DNA of 54,310 nucleotides, filler included, from Malassezia furfur (lineage: Eukaryota), in the NCBI GenBank assembly GCA_052055015.1. It is 2 parts of 2 records of this genome, joined end to end, with 100 filler letters (N's around TTAATTAATTAA, not from the genome) between each part and the next. Parts side by side here need not be neighbours in the genome. Positions count along the whole stretch, not along the records: positions 1 to 27,233 come from JBQJIT010000118.1; positions 27,334 to 54,310 come from JBQJIT010000119.1. One strand, written 5' to 3'. Each line of letters begins with the position of its first letter. Positions within the stretch are counted from its first letter, which is position 1. The position numbers and the translations under genes are program-made. Positions 4,277 through 53,898 of this stretch are shown in pieces. Below the pieces are notes generated by a model. It made no database searches. It was not told the origin of the DNA and saw only the letters and a program-made list of their open reading frames with translations.

Positions 4277-5447
4277 ATGACCACCGACGCACGGCCAGGG
4301 CCGTGGGCCGACGACGCTTTGCGCGCACTGCAGCGCCCCGAACTGCTGGGGGACCTGCCTAGCGTACGTCGACACACTGACGCAGACCGACGCGCTCCTG
4401 AAACTGCTCGCGCGACACGCGCCTCAATACCCGCATACCCCGAGCGACCAGCAGCCGGCCGCGTCCGACGCGCCCACCGACGACGTGAGCCACGCCGTAC
4501 TCGCGAACCACTGGCGGAGCATCGCACAACGCACCGCGCATGCTATCGTCACCGAGGTCTCGCCGTCCGTGCAAGCCAGCGACATAACCCACGTGCTCCA
4601 GTGGTGGCATCTGCGCCTTGTTGCGCTCTGGAAACTGCGCCTCTTTGCGCAGGCACACACCGAGCTGACCAACGTATGGAGCGTGCTTGACCACATCCTG
4701 GTGCAGCCCGGGTCTCGGCCGCTGCGCACCACGACGCTCGTCCCGTTTGCCCTGCATCTATTGCGTGCCCAAGACTTGCTTGTGCACGGCCAAAAACGCG
4801 CCGGCGTCGCGGCGCTGTGGCAACACTTGTCGTACTGTGAAGCACAGGAACGCACTGCAAACGATGCAGATGTCTGGCGTTTGCGCGGGCTCCGCATTCG
4901 GCTGCTCCTGGCCTCGGCCCTCGTCGAAATGGAGGCGCTCGACGCAGCAGCGGCCATTGTCGATCCGTTGGCGGAACCACTGCTCCACGGGCACCTCGAT
5001 GAATCGAATGCGCTCCTTGCGCTTGCTCTCGTCCGCATCTATGCCGTGATGGGCTCCCTCGCGCGCGCCGAGGCGCTCGCCGAGGCGGCACAGGCGGCGC
5101 AGCCGTCGCTGGGCGGTGCATACGCAGCGCTGGTGCGGCTGATCCGCGATCCCCATACTGTGCCATCGGAATCGCTGTCCACTGAGCCACTGAACCAAGT
5201 CAATTTAAATACGGCCGCGGTCGATGCGTTTTACCGGGGCGATTTGGATACGGGGGTGCAACTGCTCGAAGCGCTCATGCACGAGCAGCCGACATGGTTC
5301 GCCACGGCGCCCGGCCTGGCAGGCAACCTATTTACACTACATACGATGGGCTACGGCGGCGGCATCCCCGCGCGGCGGCAGATTGTCGAGCGCGTCGCGG
5401 ACGCGGCCGGCGACGACCCCGCGTGCATCGATAGCCGGATGGGGTAG
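4277..5447 (+). CDS. TRAPPC12-like TPR protein; 2 exons
   Basis: WWHLRLVALWKLRLF...VPFALHLLRA resembles TRAPPC12. A 22-nt intron 4364-4385 (GTACGT..CTGAC GCAG) joins ORF 4277 in frame to ORF 4485-5447. Confidence 0.65.
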
Positions 5448-5508
5448 CGCGTGGGGTAGTTTGCATAAGGTGGAGGTTGCGCGCCACACAAGTCGCGCGT
5501 GGCCGGCC

Positions 5509-5968
5509 ATGCTATACGCCTACTCGTTGGGGGGGTCGCTGTTGGTGCTCGTGTTGGTGCTGGGTAAGTTGTGCTGCTTATACAGTGGTGTATTGGAAGC
5601 GCGTTTGGATCCTCGCACAACTCTCCGAGCCCATGCGGCACCGCATACAAACCGTGCTGGGGGCGCGGTATAGTCCCCTGTCACGCTTTGACTGGAACAC
5701 GGCGGCGGACGTCGGACTGACCAGCTCGCTGTTCGACATCGAGGCCAACATACGGGATGGGGATGCGCGTGAAGGACTGGACGAGCGCGGCACCCAGGAA
5801 GTGCACCGCTTGATGCAGGAGCACAACATCGTACGTACCGGCGCCCCCTACTGACCCCAGAGCTTTGACGAGGCGCGGCTGCGGCGGCACCGCGCGATGC
5901 TCAGTCGCAACAACATCGACCCACTCACAGGAATGCCGCTCGATGCCAAGGCTGTGACACGCTTGTAG
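5509..5968 (+). CDS. DUF2015/UPF0357-like small fungal membrane protein; 3 exons
   Basis: N-terminal hydrophobic segment; GLTSSLFDIEANIRDGDAREGLD and FDEARL..H..ML..NNIDP.TGMPLD.KA. Introns 5564-5585 (22 nt) and 5831-5860 (30 nt) restore the frame. Confidence 0.75.
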
Positions 5969-6003
5969 AGATTCGGTGGTACTACGGAGAATGTATTTCT
6001 AGA

Positions 6004-6727: not shown

Positions 6728-7606
6728 ATGCCGGCGTCTGACGCAGCGCCGCCGCCGGACGAGGCGTCGGACGCGGCGCGCAGTACAACTCTGCCCCCGA
6801 CGCCTGAGCCGGAAGAGGCGTCGGGGCAAAAACGCGCAGCATCGACATCCGAGGCGCGCTCGTCCGAGACACCGTCGAAGCGCGCCAAGCAAGCCGTGTC
6901 TCTGAGTACGTGGCTGACGTCGTCCGGGGCGAGCGCCGATCCAGAGGGACTCCCCGAGCCATACACGTGTCCTGCAGCGCGCATTGAAGACCGCAACTCG
7001 GTGTTTGTGGGCTACGTGTACCCCCTGTCGACCGCCTCACCGACGCGGATCCAGGCGCTGCTCGACAACCTGACGCACGTGGTGCACCCTGCGATCCCCC
7101 TGTCGCAGCTGCCGCCTCAGTTTCAGCACGCCTCGGCGAAGCACCGGCGAAGCACGCACGACATGTATGCGTACCGTGTGCTGCAGCTCAAGCCGGGGCG
7201 CACCGGGCTCCAAGGCCCGAACGATTTTGGGATCGAGCAGGGGCTGGAAGACGACGGCGAGCACTGGGGCGCCGAGAAGGTCATGCGGGTGATCCGCGAG
7301 CTGGGCGCGAGCGACGTGCTGGTCGTAGTGAGCCGCTGGTACGGCGGCGAGCTGCTGGGCCCCGTGCGCTTCGACCACATCACCAACGTGGCCCGTGCTG
7401 CGCTCCTCCACTACCTGGCGCACGAAGCGGTGCAGACGCTGCGCGTGCAGCTGCAGCAGCTGGACCGCGACATTGCGCAGGCGCGGCGCCCCGACCAGCC
7501 GCCGCCGCCGCCGGACGCATACGACGACCTGACCGAGGCGCGTGCCAAACGCCTGCTCCAGGCGCGCACAAAGACGCTCGAGATGCTGCGCCGCCGTACC
7601 TCGTAA
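6728..7606 (+). CDS. IMPACT/UPF0029-domain protein, no recognisable RWD domain
   Basis: DRNSVFVG, HDMYAYR, DDGE, VVVSRWYGGELLGPVRFDHI are UPF0029 signatures. Confidence 0.85.
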   Translation: MPASDAAPPPDEASDAARSTTLPPTPEPEEASGQKRAASTSEARSSETPSKRAKQAVSLSTWLTSSGASADPEGLPEPYTCPAARIEDRNSVFVGYVYPLSTASPTRIQALLDNLTHVVHPAIPLSQLPPQFQHASAKHRRSTHDMYAYRVLQLKPGRTGLQGPNDFGIEQGLEDDGEHWGAEKVMRVIRELGASDVLVVVSRWYGGELLGPVRFDHITNVARAALLHYLAHEAVQTLRVQLQQLDRDIAQARRPDQPPPPPDAYDDLTEARAKRLLQARTKTLEMLRRRTS

Positions 7607-7632: not shown

Positions 7633-10123
7633 CTACCAAAGGTCTAGGAGCTGCTGCGTGTCGAGGTTCTGCTGCTGGGCGTCCATGGAGAAGAAGGGCG
7701 CATTCAACGGCGCGCCGTCCGTGTTTTGCGGCCAGACGGGCATCAGCGTCTGGGGGTTGAGCGCGACGTTGGGGGTGATCATGGGCATGCTGTAGAGCAG
7801 GTTGAGCTTGTCCAAGTCGGATGTGCTCGACGACGCAATGTTCGGGCTGTAGGGCACGTTGAGCGGTGGGAAAGCACTCGCGTCGCCTTTTCCCGCGTTC
7901 GGCCACGAAAACGAAGCCTCCGGCGCGTTGTCCACCGGGGCGCCGGGCACGACAGGCTGCTGCCGCCATGTGTGCACGTCGGCGGCGCTGTGTCCGGGCT
8001 GGGCGCGCTGCGACACCAGCTCGTCGATGGGCATGTGCGGTACGATGCCGCCGTTGTCGAGCCGCGTGCGCTTGTGGGCAGGCGACTCGTCTGGCGAGCC
8101 GCTCGATGCGACCGACGGGTGGTCCATGAGGAACTCCTCGGTGCTCGACTTGGCGCGCTCCAAAAACGCGCGCACGATCTGCATCTCCTTCTCGGACTCG
8201 GTGTGCCGCGCGCCGCGGTGCTGGGCGCGCCACGTGAGGAAGTCGTTCATGTAGGCGGTGAGCAGCGCCGCGTCCTCTTGTGACGGGCGCTTGAGCAGGA
8301 TGAAGCCCCCGACGATCACCGTGTTGAACCAGCGGAAGCCGGCCATTGTGTCGCGGTAACGCTGCGGGAGCGACTGGTCGACGAGCAGCTCGCGGCGCAG
8401 CGCGAGGTTGAGCTTGACGGCCTCGAGGCACGCGTCGTACGACGTGACGTACTTGGCGGGCCGCCGCGGGTTGTAGCGCAGCAGGAACGGGCAGTGCAGC
8501 GCGAGCATGAAAAAGTTGAAGTCGAGCCAGAGCTGGTAGCGCTGGATCTTGACAAAGTCGTAGAACGCGTCGCACTGCGTGTTCTGCAGGAGGCGATTGT
8601 CCTTCAGCCGGATCTGGAAGTAGAACGGGAGCTCGTCGACGACGCTGCGGTTGAACGCGACGTGGATCTGCAGGATGCGCGAGTAGGACACGGTCTTGTG
8701 TACGTTTTGCACCTCGAACGCGAGGTCGCCAATGTACACCGCCAGCTTGCTGCGCAGGTTGTTGATCAGCAGCAGGTTCGGCGGCGCGGTATGCGTAAAC
8801 AGCGCACGCAGCCCCTCGGGCACCTCGCTTGCGTCGCCGCGCAGCTCTGGCGCGCGTGTGTCGCACACAGCGTCGCTGATGATCATCGGCCGGCCGTACC
8901 CCAGCGAGGTGGTGCGCTCGATCGAGTACACGAGCGACCACACGATGCGGCGCAGCTGCGTCGTCTCCGGGTCCAAGCCCATCGCCTCGCCGTCGCGGTG
9001 CAGCCCGATGCCGAGTGCGACCCGCACGCAGTTCACCGTGCTGTTCCACGAGAGCTCAATTTGCCCACGCACGAAAAAGAGGCGCGAGAGGTGCGTGTAG
9101 GTGAGCACCGTATACACGTCCTCGCGGCTCATGTTTTGTGCCATGAAGCACGCGATTTGCGCCGCGTTGCACAGCCGCTTGCTCGCGTCCAGCTCGTCGT
9201 AGCTCCCGTTCTTCGACAGCTCAGGCACCCACTCGGGATGCGACACCGAGACGTACAGCGCGCCGATCGAGCACAGCGCCGCCAGCAGGCCAAACTGCGA
9301 GATGCGCTCCGCGGTCACCACGCCGCCGTCGTTGTAAAAGGTATGGAAGAGCGTAAAGATGAGGTCCTTGGGGATCGGGTGCCGGTACAGGTTGATTGTC
9401 TCGAGGTACACCTCGATCAGCCGTAACGACACCTCCTTGGGGTACATGGACGAGGACAGGCTCTCCTGCATTGCCGGCGAGATGGTGTTCATGTCCAGAT
9501 CGTCGCGCGGGTCCATGGGGCACTGCGATGGGCCGCTGTGCACCCGCTCATCCGACGCAAAGTTGCCCGCCGCCGCCATCATCGCAGGCAGCGGCTCCTC
9601 GCGCAGCTTGACGTGTTCTGCCGGCGCATTGTCGTCGCTCTCCGACTCGCTCCCCGCGGCGTGGTGCAGCGCATGCACCGTGTCCATCGGACTCACCGTC
9701 CGCCGCACGCCGGGCGCTCCGGCCGGCACACCGACGCGCTGCACACGTTCGATCTCGTGCGCGAGCATGTCGATGCGCCGCGACGTCTCGCCCAGCCCGG
9801 TCTCCAGGATTCTTTCGAGCCGCGCGAGCCGCGCGCTGACCTCGTTCGCAGGGTCGTGCTGCTGAAACGTATGGCACTGCTCGGGGATGCGGCGCGCAAT
9901 GCACTGCGTGAGTCGCACGTATACGTACATGCTGGCACGGTATTTGTCGATTGCACCGCTGCTTGCGCCGATAGCACTCGGTGCACGCAAACTGCACGCG
10001 GTTACGCCGCAGCGGCGCACGCGGCCGACTGGCTTCAGCGTCGGCGTCGACGCTGTGCTGGGGCGCTTGGGGCGCCTGCACGGGCGACGCTGCGCGCCCA
10101 TGCTCTCCAACTGCTTCTTGCAT
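7633..10123 (-). CDS. Zn(II)2Cys6 fungal transcription factor with middle homology region; 2 exons
   Basis: ACTECYRRKQRCNRQIPCQH|CIARRIPEQC after removing the 25-nt intron 9904-9928; ALGIGLHRD...RRIVWSL...LGYGRP. Start codon uncertain. Confidence 0.9.
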
Positions 10124-10327: not shown

Positions 10328-10690
10328 ATGTCTAAGTACGTTGTTCCCGACTCACCCAGACACCACCCGGATATCCTCCTATGCCGCAAAGTGCCGGGGA
10401 TCTCGGTCGGCCGGCTGTGCGAGCGCTGTGACGGGAAATGCCCACTGTGCGACTCGTACGTGCGCCCTGCGGCGATCGTGCGTATCTGCGACGAGTGCAA
10501 CTATGGCTCGTCCGGCGGGCGCTGTGTTGTGTGTGGTGCGCCGGGCGTGTCCGATGCCTACTACTGCGCCGAGTGCGTCCGCCTCGAAAAGGACCGCGAC
10601 GGGTGTCCCAAGACGGTCAATATGGGCATCTCGCGCCTCGACAACATCTTTAACAACCGGCGGCAGCAGACCGGCTTCCAGCGCGGATAG
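10328..10690 (+). CDS. RDS3: SF3b subunit PHF5A/Rds3; 2 exons
   Basis: MSK|HHPD...[20 protein letters not shown]...EKDRDGCPK. Removing the 24-nt intron 10336-10359 restores the conserved KHHPD start. Confidence 0.96.
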
Positions 10691-12779: not shown

Positions 12780-13925
12780 CGGCGTGAGTGAAACGGTGGG
12801 AAGTGGTGTTGGTCCGTTGGGAAATTTAAGCGCGGTGCGGAGTGGGTATCGCTAACGCAGCTCACTCACAAAGTCCAAACGAGGTGTACGAGTCTTGCAA
12901 ACATGGACTGTGGGCGCACCACAGTACGAGCCGACGCCGAATAAGTTCAGAGGATTGTGGGGATAAGACACGTAAGGTCGAGCGAGTGCACCGCAAATTC
13001 AGATTCCTCGCCACAAGCAGTTTGAGGGGGTAGAATTTCCGACGCTGTGTAATCAAGGCGCTGTTACGGCGGAGAAAGCACCTCGTACCGCGCACGGGAT
13101 AAACTCAAAATGGCGGTGGTACTCGGTGTATTCCTCGTCTCTTCCAAACCAATGAAACCCTATATTTGTGATGTCATAGTTGTTTCGCGTTCCTGAATTT
13201 AGTAATCGATACTAACCAAAAGTCTTTTTGCTCCTATGAATCATCGGCCGATACCCCCTATCGCTTCTTCCAGCCGACAACGTGGCATCGGCATTTCCGG
13301 GTGGCCGTGCGTGGAGCGTGTGGAGCAAGTGGGGGGGGACCCTCAAATTTTGCAACGCGTGGCCCCCTTGCCCTCACTTGGCAAGAGAAAAAAAGGAAAA
13401 GTCAGCCAAGTCGGCGATCGGCGTAGCGCGCGGGCGAACTATAACAGAAGCTGCGCGCTTAAAGTGACTGCGGTTGCGCGGAGATAACGTAGTCCCTCCG
13501 CGATGGAGGCAGCGGTGGTCACGCGCGTACATGCGCAGTGATCGTTAAGTAGCGCGTACCTATGTTCGCTAAACCTGCGCGCACTGCCTATGCGGCGCGC
13601 TACCTACCACAGGGCGGCTCGTGCGTTTGGTTGGGGGAACTGGCCCTATCGCGGGGTACACGGGGTCCCAGCGCCACATAGACCTATTTGAGCCACGTCG
13701 TGTCTACATCGAGTCTGTCTACGTAATTCCAGCGAGTGCCAATCCGCCTGTGACGCGTCGCCCCATAGTTTGCCGCGTAGCGCGCGAGGCCACACCCATG
13801 TCTTCGTTTCGTTCCCTATAGTGCCACGCGTGGCCTACGTCACAGCCCGAAGTCACGTGAGTGACACGAGCCGCGGGCGCCGGGCGCGAGGCGTTCGTGA
13901 CGCTGGCAAGCAACACCTCAGCAAT

Positions 13926-14484
13926 ATGGTATGTGCGCGCGTGAGACGTTGTGAACGGTGCTAACACCCAACCAGGACCGCATTAAGGAAAAGCTGAACT
14001 CGCTGCGCCAGGAGGCCGATATGGCGCTTGAGCGCGCGGAGGCCGCCGAGCAGAAGAACAAGGAGCTCGAGCAGGACAACCTGTCGAAGGAGCAGGAGAT
14101 TACCAGCCTGCAGCACAAACTGTCCGTGCTGGAGTCGGATCTTGAGACGGCTGAGTCGAAGCTCAGCGAGGCCAAGGTCGGCAAGGAGGAGGGCGAGAGC
14201 CACAAGTCGAATGTCGATATCCTTCAGCGCCGCATCGATATGCTCGAAGAGCAGCTCGACGCCTCTGAGAAGAACCTCAAGGAAACCGTCGAGCAGTACG
14301 TCTCATTACAGCTCACACCAGGTTGCGCCAGACGGATGTGCGTGCGGAGCAGCTCGAGCGCCAGATCCAGGGCGTCGAGCAGGAGCGCGACCAGTGGGAA
14401 CAAAAGTACGAAGAGGCGCAGGAGAGGTACCAGGCCTCGAAGCGGGAGCTCGACGAGGTCGTGCAGCAGATGGAGAGCTTGTGA
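13926..14484 (+). CDS. TPM1: Tropomyosin; 3 exons, first exon is ATG only
   Basis: M|DRIKEKLNSLR...RRIDMLEEQLD...EQ|LRQTDVRAEQLER. Introns 13929-13975 (47 nt) and 14296-14321 (26 nt). Confidence 0.93.
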
Positions 14485-14677: not shown

Positions 14678-15315
<638 letters not shown>

Positions 15316-18312: not shown

Positions 18313-18892
18313 TTACTTCCACGCGGCAAAGAGCTCCTTCTCCGCATCAGCGACAGCCTTGTTAAAGGCGTCAACTTCACGCCAGCAGTCGAGCGTCCGC
18401 TTCGTGTCGTTGCTGAGGTCAGAATTGGGCAGACGCACCGGTAGCACTGAATGATATCCTCGCGCGCCTTCTTCAGCGCAGGGAACGAGTCGATGCTGCG
18501 CTTGTTGAACTTTTCGATTTGCGCCTTGACGCGGTTGAGCTCCTGCTGCAGCAGCTCGCTGCTCTGCCCCTTGTCCTTGCCGAACCACGGCTTGCCCTGG
18601 CGCTCAATGTTCTCCTTCTCGAGGGCAAGCTCGATTTTCTTCTGCATATCCTGCTCCTGCTTGCGCAGCTTGCTCAGCTCAGCATGGATCTTTTCCTGGA
18701 TAGACGAGTCAATCAGCTCCTGGCGCTTCGCATCCGGGCCGGGCGCCGATGCATCAGGAGCCACTTCCTTGAGTTTCCGGGCCAGGGCGTTGCCCAGCTG
18801 GGGGTCAGCGCAAGATATGTACGTACGTCCACCTTGTCCACGGGCTCCTGCGCAGGCGACGTACTTTCGTGCTTCGAGGGAGTTGCGCCCAT
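18313..18892 (-). CDS. MIC19: MICOS subunit Mic19-like (DUF1690); 3 exons
   Basis: MG N-terminus (myristoylation-like), coiled coil, C-terminal CYRNDTKRTLDCW (CX10C). Introns 18798-18826 and 18413-18438. Confidence 0.8.
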
Positions 18893-24962: not shown

Positions 24963-25090
24963 GCCCGATATGTAATGCACGTGACTTTTTTCTTTTTTTC
25001 CCACGGCGGCCCATATTAAGTGGTCGGGGGGCACCACGGCTTGTTTCCTTACTTGCTTGGCCCAGCAGTGCGTAGAGACCTCCTGTGTGA

Positions 25091-32895: not shown

Positions 32896-33954
32896 CTATA
32901 TACGGAACAGGCGCGCCGCGTTGCGGAGCGCGTGCTCGGCCAGCTCGGCGAGGCGCACATTGTGCACGCGCGCAACGACAGCGGCCACCTCGCCGATGCA
33001 GCACGGCTCGTTGCGCCCTTTGACGGCACTTGTAGCATTCCAGCGCTCGGGCTTCGCGCGCGGCGGCGAGTACAGCGCGGCGAGCTGCGGCTCCTCGCGC
33101 CGGAACTGCTCCAAGAGTGGCGCAGACGCGTGCGTCGCGCGCAAGTCGCACCACGGCGCGTCTGAAATAAGCCACACCACGTACCTGTTTCGAGCATGAT
33201 GCGGTGCAGCGGGATCTGCCGCACCACCTCGAGGTTCTCGGCGGTCTTGAGCGAGCACCCATTCACGCCGACAAACAGGCCGAGCGACAGCAGCTCACGC
33301 AGCTCGTCGGCCGTGCCCGTGAAGCTGTGTACTACACCCACACACCCCGGCTCCTCGGCATTCGGCTCGCCACTGACCCCGCCGTTGCGGCGCAGCGCCG
33401 CCAGGTGGGGCCACAGCACCCGCACAAAGTCGGCATGCGCCGCGCGCGAGTGCAGAAAGAGCGGCAGGCGCGTCGCCTCAGCGAGCGTGAGCTGGGCATC
33501 AAACGCAGTTTTTTGGGCATCGGCAGGTGCAAAGTGCAGGCGGTCGTAGTCTGTGTGAGCCAGCGCACCTACCGAGTCCACACTCGCCGATCGCTACGAT
33601 CCGTCCGTCGTTCGTCCCAGGACGGTGGGCATCGACGAGCGCCTGCAGCGCGGCCATGTACGCGGAGGTCCCCCCCTCATACGAGGTCATCTCAGTGCTT
33701 CGCGTCGGGTGGCACCCCGCCGTTGCGTACAGGTTCGGCCGCAGCTGCGTGAGACGCAGCACCTCGTTCGTCTCGGCAAGCGAGCCGGCCGTGATGATCT
33801 GTGCACGCACCCCGGCGCGCTCAGCACGGTCAAGGACGTGCGCAAGGTCATCTGGGTGCTTCTCTTTGTCATGGTACATGCCGCGGAACATGGGGTCGCC
33901 CAAGTTCACGGCGATCTCGACATACGCCGGCACCGGCGCTGGCGCTTCGGCCAT
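32896..33954 (-). CDS. TatD-family nuclease; 3 exons
   Basis: IAVNL.DPMFRG.Y, TAGCHPT, IGECGL|DYDR, LFLHSR, VVHSFTG, LET|DAPWC, KGRNEP. Introns 33551-33572 (22 nt) and 33162-33184 (23 nt). Confidence 0.93.
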
Positions 33955-39291: not shown

Positions 39292-40009
39292 ATGGTTCTG
39301 GTGCGTGTGCGGACACAGTGCGCCTTCTTACCCCCAGGAAAAGCTGTCCATCTACCCCCAGCCTGATCAGCCGGTGACGGTCGTCGAGACGTCGAACGAG
39401 CTTGAGCGCCAGGTCGGCGGCATCCGCGAAGCCGTGCAGCGAAGTACGCGCGGGGCCCTGCAGTCGGTGCGCTCGGGCGTTGACCGTGTGGTGAACACGG
39501 AGCACAAGGTCGAGAGTAAGTTTGCGATGCACTGACCCCAGACCGCTTTGACCAGCTCGTCGCCAAGGACGAGACGCTCACGCCCAACGGCCTGTACGTC
39601 GGCGTTGCGACGCTCGCAAGCATTGTGTTCACGCGCTACCGTACGTGTTGCAGCTCACCCAGGCTCCTTCCCGGTTCGCTGGCTCACGCCGCCGCTTGTG
39701 CTTGCGGCGTCGTTCAAGTACTTCCTGCCGCACACATTCGACAACACGGCGGAATACTACGACTCGGTGGAACACAAGCACTTCCCGCAGTTCAGCGAGA
39801 AGCGTCAGGACGCCTGGTCGTCGATCAAGCGCACCTACTTCACCGGTGTGTCGCACCTCGAGCGCACGGGCGAGCAGGCCAAGGACGCCTTCGCGTCGGG
39901 CGTCCACAATGTCGAGAACAGCACCGGCCTCAAGCTCGGCTCGGTACTGCCGACCGGCACGGTGCCGCAGTCGGCGCCGGAGCTGGCCGACAAGACGAAA
40001 CTCGTGTAA
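39292..40009 (+). CDS. MICOS subunit Mic26/Mic27 (ApoO family); 4 exons
   Basis: EKLSIYP, E.LTP.GLYVGVATLA, RWLTP, YFLPHTF. Introns 39301-39337, 39516-39541, 39641-39662. Confidence 0.8.
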
Positions 40010-40030: not shown

Positions 40031-40951
40031 CTATCGCTTCGCATGTCCGGGTGCCAAGAGTTGTCCTGCGAGACGCCGCCCAGCGGCACTCAGTTGTGGC
40101 GCACGCCGCGTCCGCGAAAAGGCCGGCGACGCCCGTGCAGACCTGGGCCGCTCGGCGCGCGCCTCGTGGAATGCGCGCCGTACGACCGGGGTCGACAAGC
40201 CGGGGTCCGTAGACGACTCACCGACCAGCGGCAGGTCGTCGCTCCACCCGATGCGCTCACGCAGGTCGGCGTCGCGGGCCGCACGTTCCAGACGCGCCTT
40301 TTTGTCCGCACGGAACGCGCGGCGCATCTCCGCGTTGCGTGCATACGGGTCCGCCCACCGTCCTTGATTGTGTTCTTCGAGCTCCTCGATGCGCGCCTGG
40401 CGCTTCGCTCCGTCCTGCCGCTGGGTCTTTTTGCGCACGAGCTGCGAAAAGGCACCGTCTTCGCTAGGTGCATCGGGGTCTGTATGAGGGTGAAGAGCGT
40501 ACCGTAAATAGGGAATCCACCATGCTCTTCGGGGTTCCAGTCCTGGAGCTGTTCGCGAGCACCAGATTCAACCACATAGCGCGTGTGCTCGGGGTCCGTC
40601 TGGATCGCAAAATAGCTCTTGCACGACGGGCATTTGCACCGGAACAACCAAATGGGCGTCGAGTAATACTGACCAACCTGCCGCTTCTCTGCATTGAACC
40701 GCACGCCCTGACCGATCCGCTCATTGCACGAGAGGCTGTGGTCAGCATGAGCACGTACCACCAGACGTGAAAGGGTAGCTCGACTGCGTCAGCGCCACGC
40801 GTACGTACATCGCACCACTTTGCCAAACTTAGGCGGCCCTTCTCGCCGCGTCTGCCGTGGCTTGAAGGGTTTATCTCGATCGTCCTCGTCCCACGGGCGG
40901 TACCGCCCCACTACGTGTCAGTGTCGCACACCTACTATTAAACCCCTGCAT
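40031..40951 (-). CDS. YJU2/CCDC130 (Saf4)-family splicing factor; 5 exons
   Basis: MQGFNMGRY, VRFELPFHVWC..C, IGQGVRFNAEK, YYSTPIW, C..C, TDP. Introns 40911-40935, 40784-40808, 40736-40758, 40480-40502. Confidence 0.9.
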
Positions 40952-40986
40952 GGTGGACGCAGTGACCTCCACACGTGCACGGGCGA

Positions 40987-42171
40987 CTACGGCAAGGAGA
41001 GTGCACGGAAGTCCCAGTACTTGGTCCGTGCAGGGTCTGCATGGCGCAGTCGCGCAAGGATCTGGGTAAGCATGCGACGTACCGCATGGCCCTCGTTCCG
41101 GAGCGCCTCGTCCTGGGATGCCTGGTACCGCTCGACCGTCGCATCCAGTAGCCACTCCAGCGCATGCGCCGGTGTCCGACCCGCCTCATCGGTCTCGGGG
41201 TGCTCTGCGGCACGCACATGGTCGCCGTCCGGCACAAATGCAGCAACCTCGTTTGCAATATCGGCCATGGGCTTGTGTGGCTCGAGCGCCGTGCACAGTC
41301 TGGGTCAGATTCCCACATACCCGCGCAGGTAGTTCCACGGGCTCGCATTGTTGGGTGCCTTGGCAATTTTGTCAAGCGCATACGCGATTTCGGCATCGCG
41401 CGTTGTTTGTAGCGATGGAGTAAGCCGTCGTCCGTCTGCCCCTCGCCCAAAGATGCAAAACCAGCGGTGGTTGTACGCGCTGTTGTTCCGAAGGTCCTCG
41501 GCGAGCATTTCATCGACAAACGCAAGCTCGCCGTCCCACAGCTGCGGGAAGGCGCCCGCGCCCTGTGCACGTAGCTTTTTGTCGTGCTCGTGCAGTCCAC
41601 CAAAATGGGCCAGCACCCACTGCCGGTACGCCCACGTATGGTAGTTCTTGGCGTCGAGGCTCAGATTCGCGCGCGTGAAGTCGAGTTCGCGACTTGGGTC
41701 GCCCAGCACAGACACAATGATGCGGCGATGTTGCCTGCGTTAGTATGATACAAACCAAATCTGGTAGTTCTTCATATTGTGCTTCGCAAACTCGTCCAAG
41801 AAATCGAGCTCGCGGCGCAGGCGGTCCTGGTTGCCGTCGGCCTGGCTAAGCTCCATCAGCACCTCGGCACGGTACTGCCAAACACTGTAGTTGGCTGGAT
41901 TGAGGTACACAAGATGTGCGGTGAGCTGAAGTGCGCGTTCAGACGCCTCGACGCGCCCAGGATGCATCTGTTTGAGCGCACGGAAGAGGTCCATGGCCTG
42001 GGAATCTGCGTCAGCACGCGACGTACACTCGGGGTCATACAGAATAGGGCACAGTGGGTATGGCCCATCGTCCTGTGGGACCGGTACAACGTCGGCCCAC
42101 GTAGCAGACGTCGGGTCAAAGCGCATGGTGGACGGATCCTGCTCCGCGCCCACCTCGCGAATGGCAACCAT
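40987..42171 (-). CDS. RAM2: Protein farnesyl/geranylgeranyltransferase alpha subunit; 4 exons
   Basis: WADVVPVPQDDG, NPANYSVWQYR, KNYQIWQHRR, KNYHTWAYRQW, RNNSAYNHRW, NNASPWNYLRG. Three 21-nt introns: 42006-42026, 41735-41755, 41300-41320. Confidence 0.95.
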
Positions 42172-43669: not shown

Positions 43670-44364
43670 TTACAGAAGAAGCAGAAGCGACACACCAATG
43701 GGTGCAACAATAAAGAGAAGGACATGAATCGAGGGGCGAATGGCCGCGCTCAGGAACAGGATGGGGAAGGTGTTGGCATATTTGCCCTCGCCATTTGTGG
43801 AGCTGAGCGGCACGAAGCCAAGCATACGGTCGCGGTCATTCGAGGCGAGGTCGTCGCAGTTGGGGATCTTGCATGCCTCCTCCGCCGACACCTTGGCCTG
43901 GATACGGTACCAGCAGGTCGTCTCGGTCGCCGCGGTACAGCACGTGTTCACGATGCTGTCAGTCCAGCCAGCCTGCTGGTTCTGCGACAAAGCGTTATCC
44001 ATCGTACAGGTACCCTGCGGCGTGTCCGCCGAGAGCGTCGCCGTCGCGCCTGCCGACGCAACACCGGAATGCTCGAGCTGGTTCGACGCGGTGGGCGTAG
44101 GCACGTCCGACGACGTCGCGTTGCTGGTTGCAGAGCTGTGCGAGCTCGGCGCACTTTTGGCGGCAGACGAGGTAGTATTCGACGCGGTCGCGTTGTGTTC
44201 GGCGCGTGCGACGACCGGCGACGCAAAAACGGGCGCTGCGGGAACGGGCGCATTCAGGTCATTCTCGCTGTGTGAGCATATTCGACCTACCCCATGGCAA
44301 GCTGGGCCTGCGCCACAGACATGAGCGCGAAAATCGCAAGCAGCACCGCAGCAAAGGCCTTCAT
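43670..44364 (-). CDS. Small secreted, probably GPI-anchored, Cys-containing protein; 2 exons
   Basis: Signal peptide MKAFAAVLLAIFALMSVAQA; Ser/Thr/Pro stalk; 6 Cys; hydrophobic C-terminus; 23-nt intron 44268-44290. Confidence 0.8.
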
Positions 44365-45855: not shown

Positions 45856-46586
45856 ATGACTCAGAAATTAGTGTTGCTGACTGTCCTTTTCGTACTCCAC
45901 CGCGCCGGCGCTTGGCAGCGTGCACGTCCCATGCAGATCCCCATTCTCCCTGAGCCGTTCCAGAGTGTAGGTGATTCGCTGACACAGATCATTGCGTACT
46001 TTACGTCGACGCCCATCAATGCTGGGCTAACCGGCCTGCTGTTGCTGTCGCTCTTCTGGCTGTTCTATGTGCCGCACCCGCTCGGCGAAGACTTTACGCC
46101 GCCCGTGTCGCAGGCGCGCCAGCGGCTCGACACGAGCTCGGCGTACACCGCGCTGCCGCTTGACCACCCCAAGTCGATCGAATTTGTCTCGTACACGCCC
46201 AAGACGCTCGCGCTGTTCGACGGGACAGGCAGTGAGCAGTCGCCGGACGGCAGCAAGATTCTCCTGGCGATCAACGGCAAGGTGTTTGACGTGTCGTCCG
46301 GGCGCAACTTTTACGGACCGGGTGGCCCGTACGGCAACTTTGCGGGCCGCGACGCGTCGCGCGGAATGGCCAAGCAGTCGTTTGATCTGTGTACGTGGAC
46401 CGCTGACCCAGCCATGTTGACGCCCCTCGACCAGCCGATCGACCCGCTCGAGGACCTCACGGACAGTGAGCGGTACGTCTACGACCTGATGCCAGGAAAA
46501 ACATGTTTGACTGGGAGTCGCATTTCGCCGGCAAGTACGGCATCGTGGGCGAGCTGGTCAACGAGGGCCAGGCCGCGCGCAAGTAG
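45856..46586 (+). CDS. DAP1: Membrane-associated progesterone receptor / cytochrome b5-like heme protein; 4 exons
   Basis: ILLAINGKVFDVS.GRNFYGPGGPYGNFAGRDASRG, W..HF.GKY.IVG.L. Introns 45967-45987, 46391-46411, 46473-46495. Start may instead be 45931. Confidence 0.9.
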
Positions 46587-48061: not shown

Positions 48062-48982
48062 TTACATTACAATACACTGCGTGAGCCACCGCACATACCT
48101 CCTGGTCGTCGCCCGTAGCGCTGCGCGCCATGTCGCGCGTAAAGTCGGCGCTGCCGCCGCCACGCGGGCCAAACAGGTTCACGACGAGCACGCCGTGGTT
48201 CTTGGGGTCGATGTGCGCCGCGATGTTGTACTTGCGCAACAGGTCCTCGACGGCGGGGCGGATCTTGGACACGTGGTCGCGCGAGTGGATGCCCTTGCCG
48301 ACGATGATGCGCAGCTCCGGCACGCCTTGCGCCTGCGCCTGCGCAACGACCTGGTCGACCTTGGCGAGCGCCTCCTTCACGTACAGGCCGTGCACATCAA
48401 TCGTGCCCGGCGGCGAGTCGGCATTGTTCGCGGCATAAATCCAGTCGACCGCCTGCGCGTTGAGCATCTCCATCTGCTGCTTGTGGTAGTTGCCCTCGTC
48501 GCTGAGCTGCTTCGCCCGCGCGTGGTCGCCGTGGCTGTACGCGGACTTGGACTGGTCAAAGCACTTGGACATCTTGTCGCCCTCCGAGCGCGCGCGGTTG
48601 CGCAGCTCCTTGTACTGCGGGTTCTGCGCATTGACGTTGTTGTCGTCGAACGCGTGGATATTGTTCGTGCCGAGAATCGCCTGCGTGTTGGGCGCGGGGC
48701 CGCCCACGACGCCCGTGCCTGGGCCCGCACCGTACGCGGTGCCCTGCGCATAGCCGCCGCCCTGTGCATAGCCGCCGCCCTGCGCGTAGCCGCCGCCCTG
48801 GCCCCAGCCGCCCTGCGCCATGCCCGCGCCCATGCCAGCGCCCATGCCCGCGCCCGCGGCCGTCTGGAACTTGCGCCGCTTCAGCGCACGCAGGAGCTGT
48901 GTGAGCGCACTGCACCTACCTTGCGCCCGATGCGCAAAAACAAACGCCGGTTCGACTTGACAAACCGCAGAATTTCGTCCAT
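48062..48982 (-). CDS. DUF1771 + Smr-domain protein ending in CaaX (CIVM); 3 exons
   Basis: LRNRA..EG..M..CF..S..AY..GD...AK.LS, IDVHGLYVKEA, IIVGKGIHS, KNHGVL. Introns 48897-48919 and 48077-48098. Confidence 0.88.
48740..48860 (-). repeat. Coding Gly-rich repeats (GAGM)n and (GGGYAQ)3
   Basis: 18-bp units gccctgYgcRtagccgcc and 12-bp GAGM units. Confidence 0.8.
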
Positions 48983-49077: not shown

Positions 49078-51237
49078 CTACGCGCCGGCTTGGCGCGGCA
49101 GCGGCCCTACCTGGACGCCAGCAGACTGGCGTGGTTTCTGTGCCTTTTCCATGGCCCTGTTGTGCCGTTTCATAGCCCGGCGCCATTTGGATTTTCCGCC
49201 ATGCCGTAGCCGCGTAAGCACCGTGCTCACTGTGCCGAGCGACGCATTCGCCCATGGCGACTCTGTCGCGTCCTCGTCCAGCTCGCCCTTGCTTTTGAGC
49301 TTGTCCTCCAGCATCTGAATAGCCCGCGGCGACGCTGGCCGGCTCCGCCACTGCGCAGTGCGCCGGAGCCACAGAGGCGAGCGCCCCGCCGCATTCGCCA
49401 TTTTGGTCATAAACGTGTCGCAGCCCCGCAGCGCATGCTCAAAGTCCTCGGAACGGAGCACCTGTTTTTTCTGCCAGTACGGCGAGGTGGCGCTCTGGTC
49501 CACCATCCAGTCGGGGTTGCGCGGGTAGTAGGTCCCGACGTATTCCTTGCCGTCGCGCTGCAGCTTGAGGTAGCTCTGGTCCCAGCCCGCGAGCACATAC
49601 GTCTCTTCGCCACAGTCGACCCACGCGTTCGGCGACGTCTTTTGCAACTGGCGGCTCGGCGTCGTCTTCATGGCCGCATACAGCTCGGTAGGATTGTCGT
49701 AGTCGACGAACGCAAACGTCGCCGTGTCCCATGGCGAGTTGAACGAGCGGCGCGGCGCAGCTTGCGCCTCTGAGCGTGCGCGCCATGCATCGGCGCGCGC
49801 GCGGAGCGAGTCGATCGATTCGTCTGCATAAGCGTCTTCCACGCACCCTCGATCGGCTGCTCGTCATACAGCCCAAAGAGTGTCGGTGTGCACACCATAT
49901 CGTTGCTCAGATTCCCCACGAGATCGAGGATCAGGCAGTCCTGCTTGCCCGTGTCAGGGCTCAGGCGCATCCCGCGCCCGATCATTTGCGCAAACAGGTT
50001 CTGCGACTGCGTCGGCCGCGCCAGCAGGACGCAGTCGATTGGCGGGACGTCGGCGCCTTCCGTGAGGATCGCTGCATGAGCCACACACGTACCGCAGTTG
50101 ATCAGCACGGGGAATTCGCCGCGCTGGAATGCTTGGAGCAGTTCCTGGCGCTCGGCGACCGCAACGCCCGAGTGGATGCCGCGCGCATCGATGCCACGCG
50201 CCTGGAACTCGTGCGCAAGGGCATACACATGGTCAATGTTCACTGCAAACACCAGCGTCGACCGCCGTGCGCCGTACGCACGCTGCAGCCACGAGCGCAC
50301 AATCAGCTCGTTGATTGACGGCTCGTTGATCACCTTGGCGAGCGACGCAACGTTGTAGTCCGAGCCCGTGCGCGAGACGCTGGACAGGTCGAATTCGGCG
50401 TGCACGGCCGTAAACCGCAGCGGACACAGCCTGGGTCAGCGGCACAACGCACCACTTCTCGTCCATCATCGCGAGAAAGTCCTTGTGGTACACAATCTCC
50501 TCGTACACCGTGCCAAGCGCCATGCCGTCGTGCCGACTGAACGTTGCCGAGAAGCCGATGATCGGCACGGCGTGCGGCGTGTCTGCCTCGGCGTCGCCCA
50601 CGCGCACGCCGTTGTTAAAATGGGCGAGTACGGATCGGTACGATGCCGAGGTCGAGTGGTGCGCCTCGTCCACAATCACGCACTTGAACCGCGCCGGGTC
50701 GTACTTCTCGAGCCGGTTGGGGCGGCAGATGGACTGTACCGTCGCGACGGTGACGTCAGCGACGCCTGACGCCTTGTGCTTTGTGCCCTGTTCCAGCTCG
50801 AGGCTGAGGTGCGGCAGAATGCGCCGCACCGTCGCGGCCGCCTGCTCGGCCAAGGCCACGGCATTGACGAGGATGAGCACCTGTCCGGCACACCCCGGCG
50901 GCGACGGCATACGGTGTAGGAGCTCGGTAAACATGGTCGTCTTACCGCTGCCCGTCGGCGACGAGACGCCAATCCGGCTGACGCCGCGGCACAGCGCCGC
51001 GAGGCACGTCTCGACACACTCGGCTTGGTACGGCCGGAGGACGACCGCCGGCGCAGGCGGTGCGTCCGCGGCCGCTGCGGCATGCCCGCCCGGCGCGCTC
51101 GGTGCGCGCACGGCGCCCAAGGTCCATAGCATGCGTGTGTAGCAGAGTGGCGCGCACATACGCGCGCCGACGTGCGCCGCGCCGAGTCGCGCGACCGGGC
51201 GCCCCCAGCCGGCCACGACGCGTGCGGCGTGCAGCAT
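49078..51237 (-). CDS. IRC3: Mitochondrial SF2 DNA helicase Irc3; 4 exons
   Basis: LRPYQ, SPTGSGKT, VDEAHH, GFSAT..RHDG, STLVFAV, NCAILTEGAD.P.IDC..LARPT, QMIGRGMR. Introns 50431-50452, 50072-50092, 49824-49846. Confidence 0.92.
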
Positions 51238-51275
51238 ACTGACGCCTCCACATCGATCCGCCCCGCGTACTCGCC

Positions 51276-52378
51276 ATGACGACCCGCCCCGCAACGCACG
51301 CAGGGACCTGGTACTCGGCAGACCGTACGTTGCTTTGCACTCATGCAGCTGCGCAACTCGACCACATGCTTACCGACTGGCTGCGTGCGGCCCAGTCGGC
51401 GTCCGCGACCGATGCGGCGCCGGCCGACGCACAGGTGCCCCGCATTGCACAGCACTCCGTGGTGAAGGGGTGCAAAGCAGTGATCGGCCCGTACGTGGTG
51501 GATGCTGACGCAGGCATGCCGGCTACCGTTTTTCTGGCCCCTCGGCGGCATGGGCATACGGCTGCATTGATCCCGAGAAGATGTACGTCACCCGACACTA
51601 ACGCAGCCGCCGTGTCTTTGTACTGGGCCCCTCGCACCACGCGTACCTGGATGGGTGTGCGCTGAGCCCGTACAAGAAGCTCGAGACGCCGCTCGGCGAC
51701 CTGCGTGTGGACAAAGAGGTGAACGACACGCTGCGTGCCTCGAAACTCTTCCGCCTGATGTCCGACGAGGTGGATGAGGACGAACACAGCATGGAGCTAC
51801 ACTACCCCTACATCCGCAAGGTGTTTGGGGAACGCGACATTTCTGTGATCCCAATCCTCGTGGGTCAACTGTCGGCGGTGAAGGCAGCGCAGTTTGCCGA
51901 GGTGCTTGCCCCCCATGTCGCCGACCCGGCGACGCTGGTGGTCGTCTCGACCGACTTTTGTCACTGGGGCGAGCGCTTCCGCTACACTTACTACCAGGGC
52001 GAGGACGAGGGGACGCCCGTGCTCCTCTCGTCGCGCACGCCGCGCGAGCAGTACGCCAAGCGCCCCATCCACGCGTCCATTGCGGCGCTCGACGCGGCGG
52101 CGATGACCGCCATCTCGTATAGCCCTACGCCGGCGGCGCCCGTGGTGCACACGAGCGCAGCAGACGCGCGCAAGGCGTTCACGGCCTACCTGTCGCGCAC
52201 GGGCAACACGATCTGCGGCCGCAACCCGCTGATGCTGCTGCTCGCGACGCTGGCGCAGCTCGAAGCGCAGGACGGCTCGTTTGTGTGCAAGTTCACCCAC
52301 TATGCGCAGAGCGGCGCGGTGCAAGTGCCGAGCGACAGCTCTGTGTCGTATGCGGCAGGCTATGTACAGCAGGTGTAA
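51276..52378 (+). CDS. MEMO1: MEMO1/Mho1-family protein; 4 exons
   Basis: RPATHAGTWY, IGPHAGY..SG, VFVLGPSHH, DEDEHSMEL, STDFCHWG.RF, NTICGR, DSSVSYA. Introns 51325-51348, 51491-51513, 51583-51606. Confidence 0.95.
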
Positions 52379-53898
52379 TTAGTTTTTCTCTTCCATCCAC
52401 GCAGGGCGGCTGTCGTCGCGCATCGCATACACCTCCTGGAGGCGCTCGCGCAGCGCCTGCACTGCCTCCTTGCCGGCGACCAGGTTGCCGTCGCGCATGG
52501 TGTGCACGTTGGAGATGTCGCGGCCCTCGCGTTCGTCGCGCTCGACGCTCTCCACGAGACGCTCCGAGAAGAGCGCCTCGCCCATGAGCGCGATGTGCTG
52601 CCGGTTCTCTGCGACGCCCTCGTACAGCGGGCGCACGTTGGGTGCGTCCCAGCCGATCGCGCCGAGCCCTGCGGCGGCCTCGGGCGCGTCGGGCGCGGCG
52701 TGTGCCTCCTCCCACGCGAGGCAGGGCGCCCAGTCCGCCTGGTCGATGAGCTCCTCGGCGCGGTTCTCAAAGATGCTCTGCATCTGCGACTGCTGCGCCA
52801 TGAGGTCGACGATGCGCGTCTCCGACTTTTCTGCGGCGTCCTCGCCGGCGTTCGGGTCGAGCACCGACTTGGGCACGGGCACCTGCGGGTCAAAGTCGAG
52901 CATGTCGATGTCGAGCCATGCCGGCGCGCCCTTGGCGACCCAGTTCGGCTGCTCGTCGCAGTACAGTGCATATACGAGCAGGTTCGGGTCCCACGCACCT
53001 ACCGCGACGGTCGCGAGCCGGTTGGTATCGCCGTGCGCGCTGTAGCGGAAGCGGACGAGGTGGATCGGCAGCAAAATCGGGTAGCACGCGAGCATGTCGA
53101 CGTCGAGCGAGTCGCGCTCCATGCGCACGACTGCACGCGCGTCCTGGTCGGCGTGCTCGTTGACGTTGGCCACCTGGATCTCGACGCCCGGCAGCAGCTT
53201 GAAGCGCCGGCGGATGTGGAGCGGCGGCCCCTGGGCGAGGAGGTCGACCATGAGCGTGCGCAGGTCGGCGTGCTGCAGCATCGCGGGCAGACTGCACGGC
53301 GACACGTTGAACGGCAGCACGCTGATCTTCCCGTCCACGTCCACGTCCGGGTGCAGGTGCCGCGCGCTCTCAAACGCCGCATAGGGCATCGGCGCATCGG
53401 CGCCCTTGATGAGCGGCATCGGCACCTGCTCCATGGCGGGCGTGCGCAGCGGCGGCGGGCGCAGTGGGAGCGTGTCGAGCGGCTTGTACGCGTTGCCTGG
53501 GAACGCCGAGTTGGTCGAGACGACTGCGTCAGTATGCACACCTACACGTTGCCGTGGCCTGGCCGGCATCGCCGCGGCACCGCATCTTCCACACGCCGTC
53601 GACAGTCTGGGTAAGCAGGGGCGCGACGAACCCAGATCGGATAGTACAGGGCCTGTGCGGACTCGAAGCGCATCACGTCCTCCTCCGACTCGGTCATCCA
53701 GCCGAGCCCGAGCGCCTGCGACACCGCAAAGGCGATGCCGCCCCAGCGCCCCTTGATGGTGGGCAGCAGCTGCTCGAGGGCGCCGAGGCGCGCGCGGTGC
53801 ACGGCGTCCTTGGTGCCGAGCTGGAAATCGAGGGCGCTCACGCGGCTTGCGCGCGCGGCGCGCGCCGACGTGCTCAACGCACGCAACGGCACAAACAT
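52379..53898 (-). CDS. Hypothetical protein with a mitochondrial presequence-like N-terminus; 3 exons
   Basis: MFVPLRALSTSARAARASR; introns 53607-53631 (25 nt) and 53524-53545 (22 nt) join ORF 53898 to ORF 52379-53569 in frame. Confidence 0.7.

Follow-up and report, generated by a model that had tools for sequence, protein, structure and literature searches.

In a 54,310-bp stretch of the Malassezia furfur assembly GCA_052055015.1 (hereafter "the window", meaning the whole stretch of DNA analyzed; ~65% G+C, with tightly packed eukaryotic genes), we modeled 37 genes, 22 of which are predicted to carry a total of 54 GT-AG introns of only 21–47 nucleotides (nt; median 23, mean 24.5). Judging from sequence, these are very probably ordinary U2-type spliceosomal introns that have shrunk to a near-minimal and rigid layout, with lengths of 21 (9 introns), 22 (13), 23 (11), 24 (3), 25 (4), 26 (5), 27–33 (7), 37 (1) and 47 nt (1). 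A first-pass annotation of this DNA had proposed 53 such introns between positions 4364 and 53631. Our set, which was rebuilt independently of that list, with only its length distribution being used for comparison, differs from it by one intron, in the 21-nt class (9 instead of 8), and our first and last introns (4364–4385 and 53607–53631) coincide with the ends of the proposed span.

Gene models were obtained by training a codon model on the longest open reading frames (ORFs) with a coding G+C pattern, joining it to an intron model in a dynamic-programming gene finder, and curating the output by hand. We retained a run in which introns of 18–60 nt were permitted, in preference to one permitting up to 300 nt, in which neighboring genes were fused (SDH1 with UBC9, RAM2 with YJU2, and TAF1 with antisense ORFs). 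The retained run picked no intron shorter than 21 nt, and each of the 22 spliced models opens with M, closes with a stop, and contains no stop in between. The first-pass annotation had stated that most of these introns repair a frameshift or a stop, which agrees with our models, in that 39 of the 54 have lengths that are not a multiple of three (3n), and seven of the 15 that do carry an in-frame stop. Of the eight stop-free 3n introns, five are backed by homology, and the other three lie at 45967–45987, 46391–46411, and 51325–51348.

The underlying motif occurs well beyond its frequency in shuffled sequence. Using a loose definition on both strands (GTNNGT, then CTNA[CT] with its A 3–15 nt from the end, then AG), we obtained 9, 11, 8, 4, 6, and 4 matches at 21, 22, 23, 24, 25, and 26 nt, respectively, compared to ~0.7–1.4 per length in block shuffles, that is, 42 matches in total over this range against ~5.8 expected; the loose matches below 21 nt (16, 17, and 19 nt) are inside longer introns or outside genes. 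Forty-seven strong candidates yield a common pattern of a GTACGT-like 5′ site, a CTNAC branch motif with its A at −6, and a CAG acceptor. A strict definition (GT[AGT]NG[TC], a spacer of at least 3 nt, CTNA[CT], 1–4 nt, and [CT]AG, with a total length of 18–40 nt) gave 71 matches, compared to 7.81 ± 3.21 in 100 shuffles (maximum 17). These comprise 52 curated introns, 14 matches that represent alternative ends of curated introns, four matches outside our first set of coding sequences (CDS), and one antisense to CDS. Not a single unused strict match was found in the sense strand within the 44.9 kb of CDS. The two curated introns that are not among the 52 are the 47-nt intron, which lies beyond the scanned length range, and an intron in a zf-C2HC5 gene that was added afterward. 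The latter (20221–20242) was one of the four matches outside the first CDS set and became the 54th intron; it was found solely by the strict-motif scan and joins a 49-nt ATG exon to a 411-codon ORF with a Pfam zf-C2HC5 match. Where counts below are given for the "first 53" introns, they refer to the set before this addition.

All 54 introns begin with GT and end with AG, all contain a CTNAY branch-like motif (the branch position being taken from the motif), and all use the first AG downstream of the branch A. The donor is GTNNGT in 47 of the first 53 introns and GTNNGC in six, with the 54th being GTACGC. The most frequent 5′ site is GTACGT (27 of the first 53), followed by GTGCGT (7), GTAGGT (6), GTATGT (3), GTACGC (3, or 4 with the 54th), and others, such that 41 of the 54 introns have C at +4. 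The branch-like motifs of the first 53 are CTGAC (21), CTCAC (13), CTTAC (6), CTAAC (4), and CTNAT (9), and the acceptor is CAG in 51 and TAG in two. The number of nucleotides after the branch A is 5 in 36 of these introns, 6 in ten, 7 in five, and 8 and 11 in one each, and never below 5; the branch motif is separated from YAG by 1–3 nt, or by 7 nt in the 47-nt intron. Almost all of the length variation resides in the first spacer, from the 5′ hexamer to the branch motif; its length is 6 nt in nine introns, 7 nt in 15, 8 nt in ten, up to 26 nt, and never below 6. This spacer is G+C-rich rather than pyrimidine-rich (A.18, C.32, G.33, T.17), the introns contain no pyrimidine tract, and their overall G+C content is 0.60, compared to 0.655 for CDS. 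The 21-nt floor is thus the shortest possible sum of a 6-nt 5′ site, a spacer of at least 6 nt, the 5-nt CTNAY motif, at least 1 nt, and the 3-nt YAG (6+6+5+1+3). The layout described in the first-pass annotation (a GTACGT-type donor, a short spacer, a CTRAC/CTYAC-like branch site, and YAG after a further 1–2 nt, with no polypyrimidine tract) holds in this set, with GTACGT in 27 and CTNAY in all of the first 53 introns. U12-type introns have a rigid ATCC-type 5′ site and AT-AC or GT-AG ends, and no donor of this ATCC type was found among the 54.

Some exons are very small, with sizes of 3, 8, 9, 15, 15, 16, 23, 25, and 27 nt. The first exon of the tropomyosin gene consists of ATG alone (13926–13928), and further micro-exons are the first exons of RDS3 (10328–10335, 8 nt), the ApoO gene (39292–39300, 9 nt), CSN2 (39164–39178, 15 nt), and YJU2 (40936–40951, 16 nt), as well as the last exon of the Smr gene (48062–48076, 15 nt). 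An internal YJU2 exon of 25 nt (40759–40783) is flanked by introns of 25 and 23 nt.

Comparison with homologous proteins, which were retrieved by single-exon queries and then aligned to the spliced models, provides junction-level support for 30 of the 54 introns (CSN2 8, UBC9 5, RAM2 4, helicase 2, YJU2 2, a Zn2Cys6 transcription factor 1, and 8 from profiles or structures). For the three genes queried in the named protein collection, the top named matches are all to Malassezia species, with no annotated protein being 100% identical. The nearest annotated species is M. brasiliensis (96% amino acid identity for one CSN2 exon and 91% for one RAM2 exon), and M. japonica, M. yamatoensis, M. vespertilionis, and others are further off in our protein searches. 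Removing the eight CSN2 introns (21–23 nt) yields a protein of 450 residues that aligns without a gap to the deposited 450-residue M. brasiliensis protein P0001, with 433/450 identities. Removing the five UBC9 introns yields 162 residues that align gaplessly to UBC9 of M. pachydermatis (158/162), M. sympodialis (157/162), and M. restricta (156/162), with no internal gaps relative to Sporisorium or Pneumocystis either; an alternative UBC9 model with a 36-nt first intron was rejected, as it contains two stops and aligns poorly. In the case of RAM2, removal of four 21-nt introns gives gapless alignments at all four junctions with M. japonica and at three with M. brasiliensis, the model of which lacks exon 1. 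If these introns are kept, exact 7-residue gaps appear at all four sites relative to M. japonica, at the three covered sites relative to M. brasiliensis, and at the first two sites relative to Testicularia, Thecaphora, and Pseudozyma, where the alignments are broken further downstream.

The profile and structure evidence comes from Pfam or PDB coordinates that abut across a junction (two introns in ApoO, and one each in TatD, TAF1, DUF1690, DUF2015, PHF5, and MEMO). For MEMO, residues 1–20 of exon 3 correspond to 3bcz residues 45–64 (a weak match, E = 1.6) and the first residue of exon 4 to residue 68, leaving two residues plus a split codon; PDB comparison of MEMO exon 2 and of the unspliced MEMO 5′ end gave no match. 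In the Zn2Cys6 factor, the six-cysteine pattern is restored by splicing and destroyed by read-through, and the second half of the Zn_clus domain, a stretch too short for this purpose, has no Pfam support.

Also informative are several database proteins that are bare ORF calls from the genomic contigs of related organisms. In the RAM2 relative P0012 (92% identical in the exon), in-frame inserts of seven residues sit precisely at junctions 3 and 4; P0014 has an insert at each of junctions 1 (7 residues), 2 (7), and 3 (8), P0024 has a 12-residue insert at junction 2, and P0018 is collinear with no insert at any of the four sites. Similarly, the UBC9 relative P0110 carries an 8-residue insert at junction 4 and none at junction 5, P0118 aligns collinearly without a gap, as does P0115 (an ORF of 163 residues from a contig of 582 nt), and the CSN2 relative P0009 passes three junctions (6, 7, and 8) without an insert. 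On the basis of these sequences, some relatives have putative introns of 21–36 nt at the same sites and others lack them exactly, with the predicted 21-nt class being present in relatives too. Such presence and exact absence is, short of RNA, the classic signature of spliceosomal introns.

Table 1. Predicted introns in the window, with the observations bearing on each.
Gene and intron	Position	Strand	Length (nt)	Observations
TPR-like gene (exons 4277–4363, 4386–5447)	4364–4385	+	22	Strict motif, frame restored, complete ORF; no junction-level homology
DUF2015 gene, 1	5564–5585	+	22	Motif GTAAGT...CTTAT, frame restored
DUF2015 gene, 2	5831–5860	+	30	Pfam DUF2015 46 (last residue exon 2), 47 (first residue exon 3); in-frame stop if kept
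Zn2Cys6 transcription factor (exons 10123–9929, 9903–7633)	9904–9928	-	25	Zn_clus positions 1–22 end exactly at exon end
RDS3/PHF5, after 8-nt first exon	10336–10359	+	24	PHF5 position 4 = exon 2 residue 1, leaving 3 residues for exon 1 plus split codon
Tropomyosin, 1, right after ATG	13929–13975	+	47	Longest of set; GTATGT...CTAAC...CAG; in-frame stop; complete ORF
Tropomyosin, 2	14296–14321	+	26	Motif, frame restored; Pfam Tropomyosin matched by both exons
UBC9, 1	15264–15292	-	29	Spliced protein gapless vs Malassezia UBC9
UBC9, 2	15188–15220	-	33	Gapless spliced alignment; in-frame stop
UBC9, 3	15077–15103	-	27	Gapless spliced alignment; 9-residue insert in unspliced ORF P0108
UBC9, 4	14972–15003	-	32	Donor GTACGC; gapless alignment; Pfam UQ_con 63/65 across split codon; 8-residue insert in P0110, P0120
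UBC9, 5	14875–14902	-	28	Gapless spliced alignment; P0110 collinear, no insert
DUF1690 (MIC19-like) gene, 1	18798–18826	-	29	Motif, ORF
DUF1690 gene, 2	18413–18438	-	26	Pfam 118/121, split codon plus one residue between
zf-C2HC5 (TRIP4-like) gene (exons 20291–20243, 20220–18986)	20221–20242	-	22	Strict motif; donor GTACGC
RRM gene, 1	24457–24482	+	26	Donor GTACGC; motif, frame restored
RRM gene, 2	24612–24633	+	22	Motif, frame restored, in-frame stop; RRM_1 starts at residue 6 of next exon
DUF2921/RING gene	29147–29169	+	23	Frame restored; Pfam DUF2921 187/200, 11 residues for 12 profile positions
TAF1 (DUF3591)	30882–30907	-	26	DUF3591 position 270 at residue 649/650, 272 at next exon residue 1
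TatD, 1	33551–33572	-	22	Pfam TatD_DNase 94/101, 6 residues between
TatD, 2	33162–33184	-	23	Motif, frame restored; Pfam spacing uninformative
CSN2, 1	39142–39163	-	22	Gapless alignment to P0001
CSN2, 2	39092–39114	-	23	GTGCGC...TAG; gapless alignment to P0001
CSN2, 3	38987–39009	-	23	Gapless alignment to P0001
CSN2, 4	38886–38907	-	22	Gapless alignment to P0001
CSN2, 5	38742–38762	-	21	Gapless alignment to P0001; in-frame stop
CSN2, 6	38395–38416	-	22	Gapless alignment to P0001; P0007, P0009 collinear, no insert
CSN2, 7	38273–38294	-	22	Gapless alignment to P0001; P0009 collinear, no insert
CSN2, 8	38003–38023	-	21	Gapless alignment to P0001; in-frame stop; P0009 collinear
ApoO/MIC26-like gene, 1, after 9-nt exon	39301–39337	+	37	Motif, ORF
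ApoO gene, 2	39516–39541	+	26	Pfam ApoO 52/57, 4 residues between
ApoO gene, 3	39641–39662	+	22	Pfam ApoO 85/88, 2 residues between
YJU2, 1	40911–40935	-	25	Acceptor TAG; motif, ORF
YJU2, 2	40784–40808	-	25	Frame restored, in-frame stop; adjoins 25-nt exon
YJU2, 3	40736–40758	-	23	M. vespertilionis P0016 collinear across junction
YJU2, 4	40480–40502	-	23	GTACGC...CTCAT; M. vespertilionis P0016 collinear across junction
RAM2, 1	42006–42026	-	21	7-residue gap if kept; P0014 7-residue insert, P0018 none
RAM2, 2	41735–41755	-	21	GTTTGT...CTAAC; 7-residue gap if kept; in-frame stop
RAM2, 3	41300–41320	-	21	7-residue gap if kept; P0012 7-residue insert at site
RAM2, 4	41062–41082	-	21	7-residue gap if kept; P0012 7-residue insert, P0018 none
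Gene with signal-peptide-like N-terminus (by eye; exons 44364–44291, 44267–43670)	44268–44290	-	23	Motif, in-frame stop, frame restored
Cytochrome-b5-like (DAP1-type) gene, 1	45967–45987	+	21	Strict motif alone; 3n, stop-free
DAP1-type gene, 2	46391–46411	+	21	Strict motif; 3n, stop-free; PDB 4x8y alignment stops one residue before donor (weak support)
DAP1-type gene, 3	46473–46495	+	23	Motif, frame restored
DUF1771/Smr gene, 1	48897–48919	-	23	Motif, frame restored
Smr gene, before 15-nt last exon	48077–48098	-	22	Perfect motif; only last few codons altered, coding evidence weak
Helicase, 1	50431–50452	-	22	No gap within 6 residues of junction, 8/8 full-length representatives
Helicase, 2	50072–50092	-	21	Pfam Helicase_C 71/74, 2 residues between; no nearby gap 8/8; keeping adds one gap 8/8
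Helicase, 3	49824–49846	-	23	Frame restored; variable region, gaps within 6 residues in 5/8 alignments
MEMO, 1	51325–51348	+	24	Strict motif; 3n, stop-free
MEMO, 2	51491–51513	+	23	Motif, frame restored
MEMO, 3	51583–51606	+	24	3bcz coordinates fit; in-frame stop
Unnamed gene 53898–52379, 1	53607–53631	-	25	Motif, frame restored
Gene 53898–52379, 2	53524–53545	-	22	Motif, in-frame stop, frame restored

Taken together, the features expected of ultra-short spliceosomal introns, as originally proposed for this DNA, are what we observe, namely GT-AG ends, CTNAY, and first-AG usage in every case, restored frames, and a sharp 21-nt floor. Strict-motif elements are found almost exclusively on the sense strand of genes (52 curated sense matches compared to one antisense), and removal of the introns produces complete reading frames in 22 of 22 models as well as collinearity with orthologues at the supported junctions. 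From general knowledge of the spliceosome, we envisage that each intron would be recognized as a unit (intron definition), with the 5′ site (GUACGU) being read by U1 and then U6, CUNAY being read by SF1/BBP and U2 with its A bulged out, and the first AG downstream of the branch A, at a distance of 5–8 nt (11 nt for the 47-nt intron), serving as the 3′ site, with no need for a pyrimidine tract. The 21-nt floor would then probably represent the shortest spacing of 5′ site, branch, and 3′ site tolerated by the spliceosome of this lineage. In cryo-electron microscopy structures, the AG of the 3′ site docks onto the G of the 5′ site and the branch A. If this applies here, the 5-nt minimum would leave just three nucleotides looped out, which would be a plausible reason for the branch-to-AG limit.

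Several points weigh against this interpretation. The intron calls are based on sequence and homology, and for 24 of the 54 introns the motif and the reading frame are the entire evidence. Read-through of the three stop-free 3n introns singled out above would leave the protein intact, and independent support for these three is absent or weak; the intron at 48077–48098 alters only the last few codons, and branch points are assigned from the motif. We infer, moreover, the U1/U6 and SF1/U2 steps and the independence from a pyrimidine tract, and the predominance of C at +4 of the 5′ site is at odds with textbook U1 pairing.

The earlier suggestion of a spliceosome near its steric limit is not supported in the form given. 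A hard floor is seen, but 21 nt can be at most a lineage-specific limit and not a general one, because introns of 15–16 nt are reported to be spliced in Stentor (PMC13644364). This same observation leaves some room for an account in which the floor is not steric at all, with deletion bias simply coming to a halt where a shorter intron would lose an essential signal, and the fact that the lengths of the signals and a 6-nt spacer add up to exactly the floor fits this account as well. We nevertheless consider it rather unlikely, although it fares best among the alternatives: the 6-nt minimum spacer contains no recognizable signal, yet none of the 54 introns has a shorter one while nine have exactly 6 nt, as a spacing constraint would predict, and the distance from branch to 3′ end never falls below 5 nt.

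Returning to the introns themselves, some of the stop-free 3n elements of 21 or 24 nt might instead be coding insertions or often retained, giving isoforms that are 7–8 residues longer. Eight of the 15 3n introns lack an in-frame stop, three of these lack junction-level homology, and in relatives the ORFs found in databases continue across such introns; however, all eight carry the full strict motif, the orthologues lack exactly the residues in question in the five cases where this can be tested, and the strict motif has no unused sense match throughout the CDS, such that we consider this option improbable. Removal or skipping of the segments by non-spliceosomal means (DNA elimination or ribosomal bypass), or their origin as assembly errors or pseudogene lesions, can be set aside with near certainty given the U2-type signature (GT...AG ends, CTNAY, and first-AG use) in 54 of 54 cases, the strand specificity of the strict motif, the introns at the same sites in related species, and the reported 99% RNA sequencing (RNA-seq) support of similarly short introns in M. 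sympodialis (PMC5389616).

We note that a number of further motif matches were left out of the set. Two strict-motif units lie upstream of start codons and are candidate introns in 5′ untranslated regions (UTRs), namely one of 28 nt at 4107–4134 (+), preceding the ATG at 4277, and one of 36 nt at 25068–25103 (+), preceding the ubiquitin-S27a ATG at 25139. A 19-nt unit at 12842–12860 (+), in the 1-kb gap before the tropomyosin gene, falls below the floor and is probably due to chance. A 39-nt (or 72-nt) unit, GTACGT...CAG, at 6906–6944 (+) lies within a continuous UPF0029 (IMPACT-like) ORF, is 3n and stop-free with a gene-finder score of ~0, and was left out as unsupported. Two other candidates were dropped, one being a first intron of 87 nt in the helicase gene and the other an intron of 35 nt at the 3′ end of a JmjC gene. 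Finally, two introns from unrelated genes, at 4364–4385 (+) and 38395–38416 (-), match at 21 of their 22 positions and share the entire 7-nt spacer. An introner-like intron family is not clearly supported, in that spacer similarity across all introns is not significant once dinucleotide bias is modeled (P = 0.09, 0.03, and 0.09 for three measures under a first-order Markov null); the most common dinucleotide in this analysis is CG.

The first-pass annotation further anticipated that default gene finders would miss such introns, and deposited proteins do indeed show gene finders stumbling over them, with inserts of 8 or 11 residues, RAM2 fused to YJU2, and some exons missing. Specifically, the UBC9 proteins of M. 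globosa (P0114) and M. equina (P0120) contain an 11-residue insert at one junction and an 8-residue insert, respectively, which are likely retained introns. Conversely, the UBC9 proteins of M. caprae (P0119), M. equina (P0120), and M. nana (P0125) all lack the same seven residues near the C-terminus that are present in M. sympodialis and in the window, which may be due to a 21-nt intron predicted in error. On one strand (40951–42171, -), only 35 nt separate the end of RAM2 (40987) from the start of YJU2 (40951), and four deposited proteins (P0016, P0017, P0019, and P0022, from two M. vespertilionis entries, M. sp. CBS 17886, and M. cuniculi) combine the prenyltransferase and Yju2 Pfam domains, and are thus probably false gene fusions. 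The sole database protein with 100% identity to a UBC9 exon of the window, P0108, is a 152-residue ORF (14681–15130 region, -) that reads through three introns, of which the 27-nt intron stays in frame while those of 32 and 28 nt together shift the frame by 60 nt, such that it is regained; P0108 illustrates how an ORF call that ignores splicing can pass for a protein. Genes in these genomes will be broken or fused by gene-prediction and read-alignment software run with a default minimum intron size.

Among lineages with comparably small introns, Microsporidia have very few. They are related to fungi and, like the window, have very short introns, with a reported median splicing efficiency of ~25% (PMC13644364), whereas the window has 54 introns in 37 genes. 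In ciliates (~25 nt in Paramecium, PMC8997360, PMC5014332; 15–16 nt in Stentor), the introns as described resemble those of the window in their length, their GT-AG ends, and the lack of room for a pyrimidine tract, but the lineage is unrelated, Stentor lies well below 21 nt, and the window, at ~65% G+C, has an explicit branch motif in every intron. Myxobolid myxozoans and Dicyema, with median lengths of 22–27 bp that a 2026 paper presents as the shortest among animals (PMC13644364), are comparable in length; these are animals in which the splice-site motifs are described as reduced, whereas those of the window are strong. The part of that paper dealing with lineages below 30 bp names ciliates, Microsporidia, and Dicyemida, with Malassezia unmentioned there.

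The phenomenon is nevertheless known for the genus, such that the novelty which the first-pass annotation had left unverified does not survive at this level: short introns are already in print (PMC7426719, PMC5389616, PMC9241646) and in deposited annotations, as exemplified by the M. brasiliensis CSN2 protein, which is already collinear with all eight junctions. Malassezia genes have been described as having "very short introns" (PMC7426719), and the curated annotation of M. sympodialis (Zhu et al. 2017), for which intron ranges were set down to 10 bp, is reported to contain 5350 introns with a mean of 30 bp and 99% RNA-seq support (PMC5389616). For M. restricta KCTC 27527, the accounts available give 2150 introns with an average of 37.2 and a median of 30 bp, obtained with minimum-intron settings of 20 and 15 (PMC9241646, PMC6473144). 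Older Malassezia pipelines gave average introns of 65–79 bp (PMC5389616, PMC4634964), and M. sympodialis figures as an intron-poor species in Lim et al. (2021; PMC8476143). M. sympodialis thus belongs to the same genus and shows the same phenomenon, with its UBC9 collinear with our spliced model; compared to its reported mean of 30, the introns of the window are shorter (mean 24.5, median 23), and the searchable text and supplement text of that study, which presents its intron size distribution in Fig. S8, contained no mode, floor, or splice-signal architecture (PMC5389616). Likewise, the median is 30 in M. restricta compared to 23 in the window, and the portions of the M. restricta papers available do not describe the signals.

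A 22–23 nt mode, a 21-nt floor, the rigid architecture, and the 5-nt branch-to-acceptor spacing were not found in the open-access literature that we searched, and, among the matches listed for ultra-short, minimum, or median intron length, Malassezia appeared only in papers on mitochondrial genomes, M. restricta, and M. arunalokei. We thus regard the finding as correct and its novelty as modest, the phenomenon being known at the level of the genus. It is possible, although a little short of probable, that the M. brasiliensis lineage as a whole has a genome-wide mode of 22–23 nt and a hard 21-nt floor set by the 6+6+5+1+3 layout, with the branch A 5 nt from the 3′ site; its introns would then surpass those of all other free-living fungi in shortness and uniformity, and would be on a par with the record-short introns published for animals in 2026 while being absent so far from the ultra-short-intron literature. 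As part of this same tentative picture, the mini-introns would still be being gained or lost, because intron presence in CSN2, RAM2, and UBC9 differs between close relatives.

The scientific point is modest but real. Agrobacterium-mediated transformation has been published for both M. furfur and M. sympodialis (PMC5654937), and a culturable, transformable yeast with strong splice signals packed into 21–26 nt would be suited to asking how little distance is needed between the 5′ site, the branch point, and the 3′ site, how the latter is selected with no pyrimidine tract, and how C at +4 of the 5′ site is read.

With regard to the remainder of the window, Rfam and tRNA scans of the window gave no match. 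A metagenome scan for DNA of relatives with the DNAJC28-like protein found no relative, and a similar scan with SDH1 returned 80 loci of at most 82% identity, none of which was useful, and which were not used. Two runs of N (27234–27277 and 27290–27333, 44 nt each) lie just upstream of a protein-kinase gene (25781–27043, -). Some convergent genes end back to back, with touching stop codons, at 48061/48062 (the DNAJC28-like and Smr genes) and 52378/52379 (MEMO and gene 53898), and other convergent pairs are only 9–24 nt apart (21854/21864, 40009/40031, and 29699/29724), so that the 3′ UTRs of these pairs must overlap. Finally, three splicing-related genes in the window each contain ultra-short introns themselves: RDS3/PHF5 (SF3b; 10328–10690, +), YJU2 (40031–40951, -), and the RRM gene (24396–24962, +), the product of which we take to be Y14-like.

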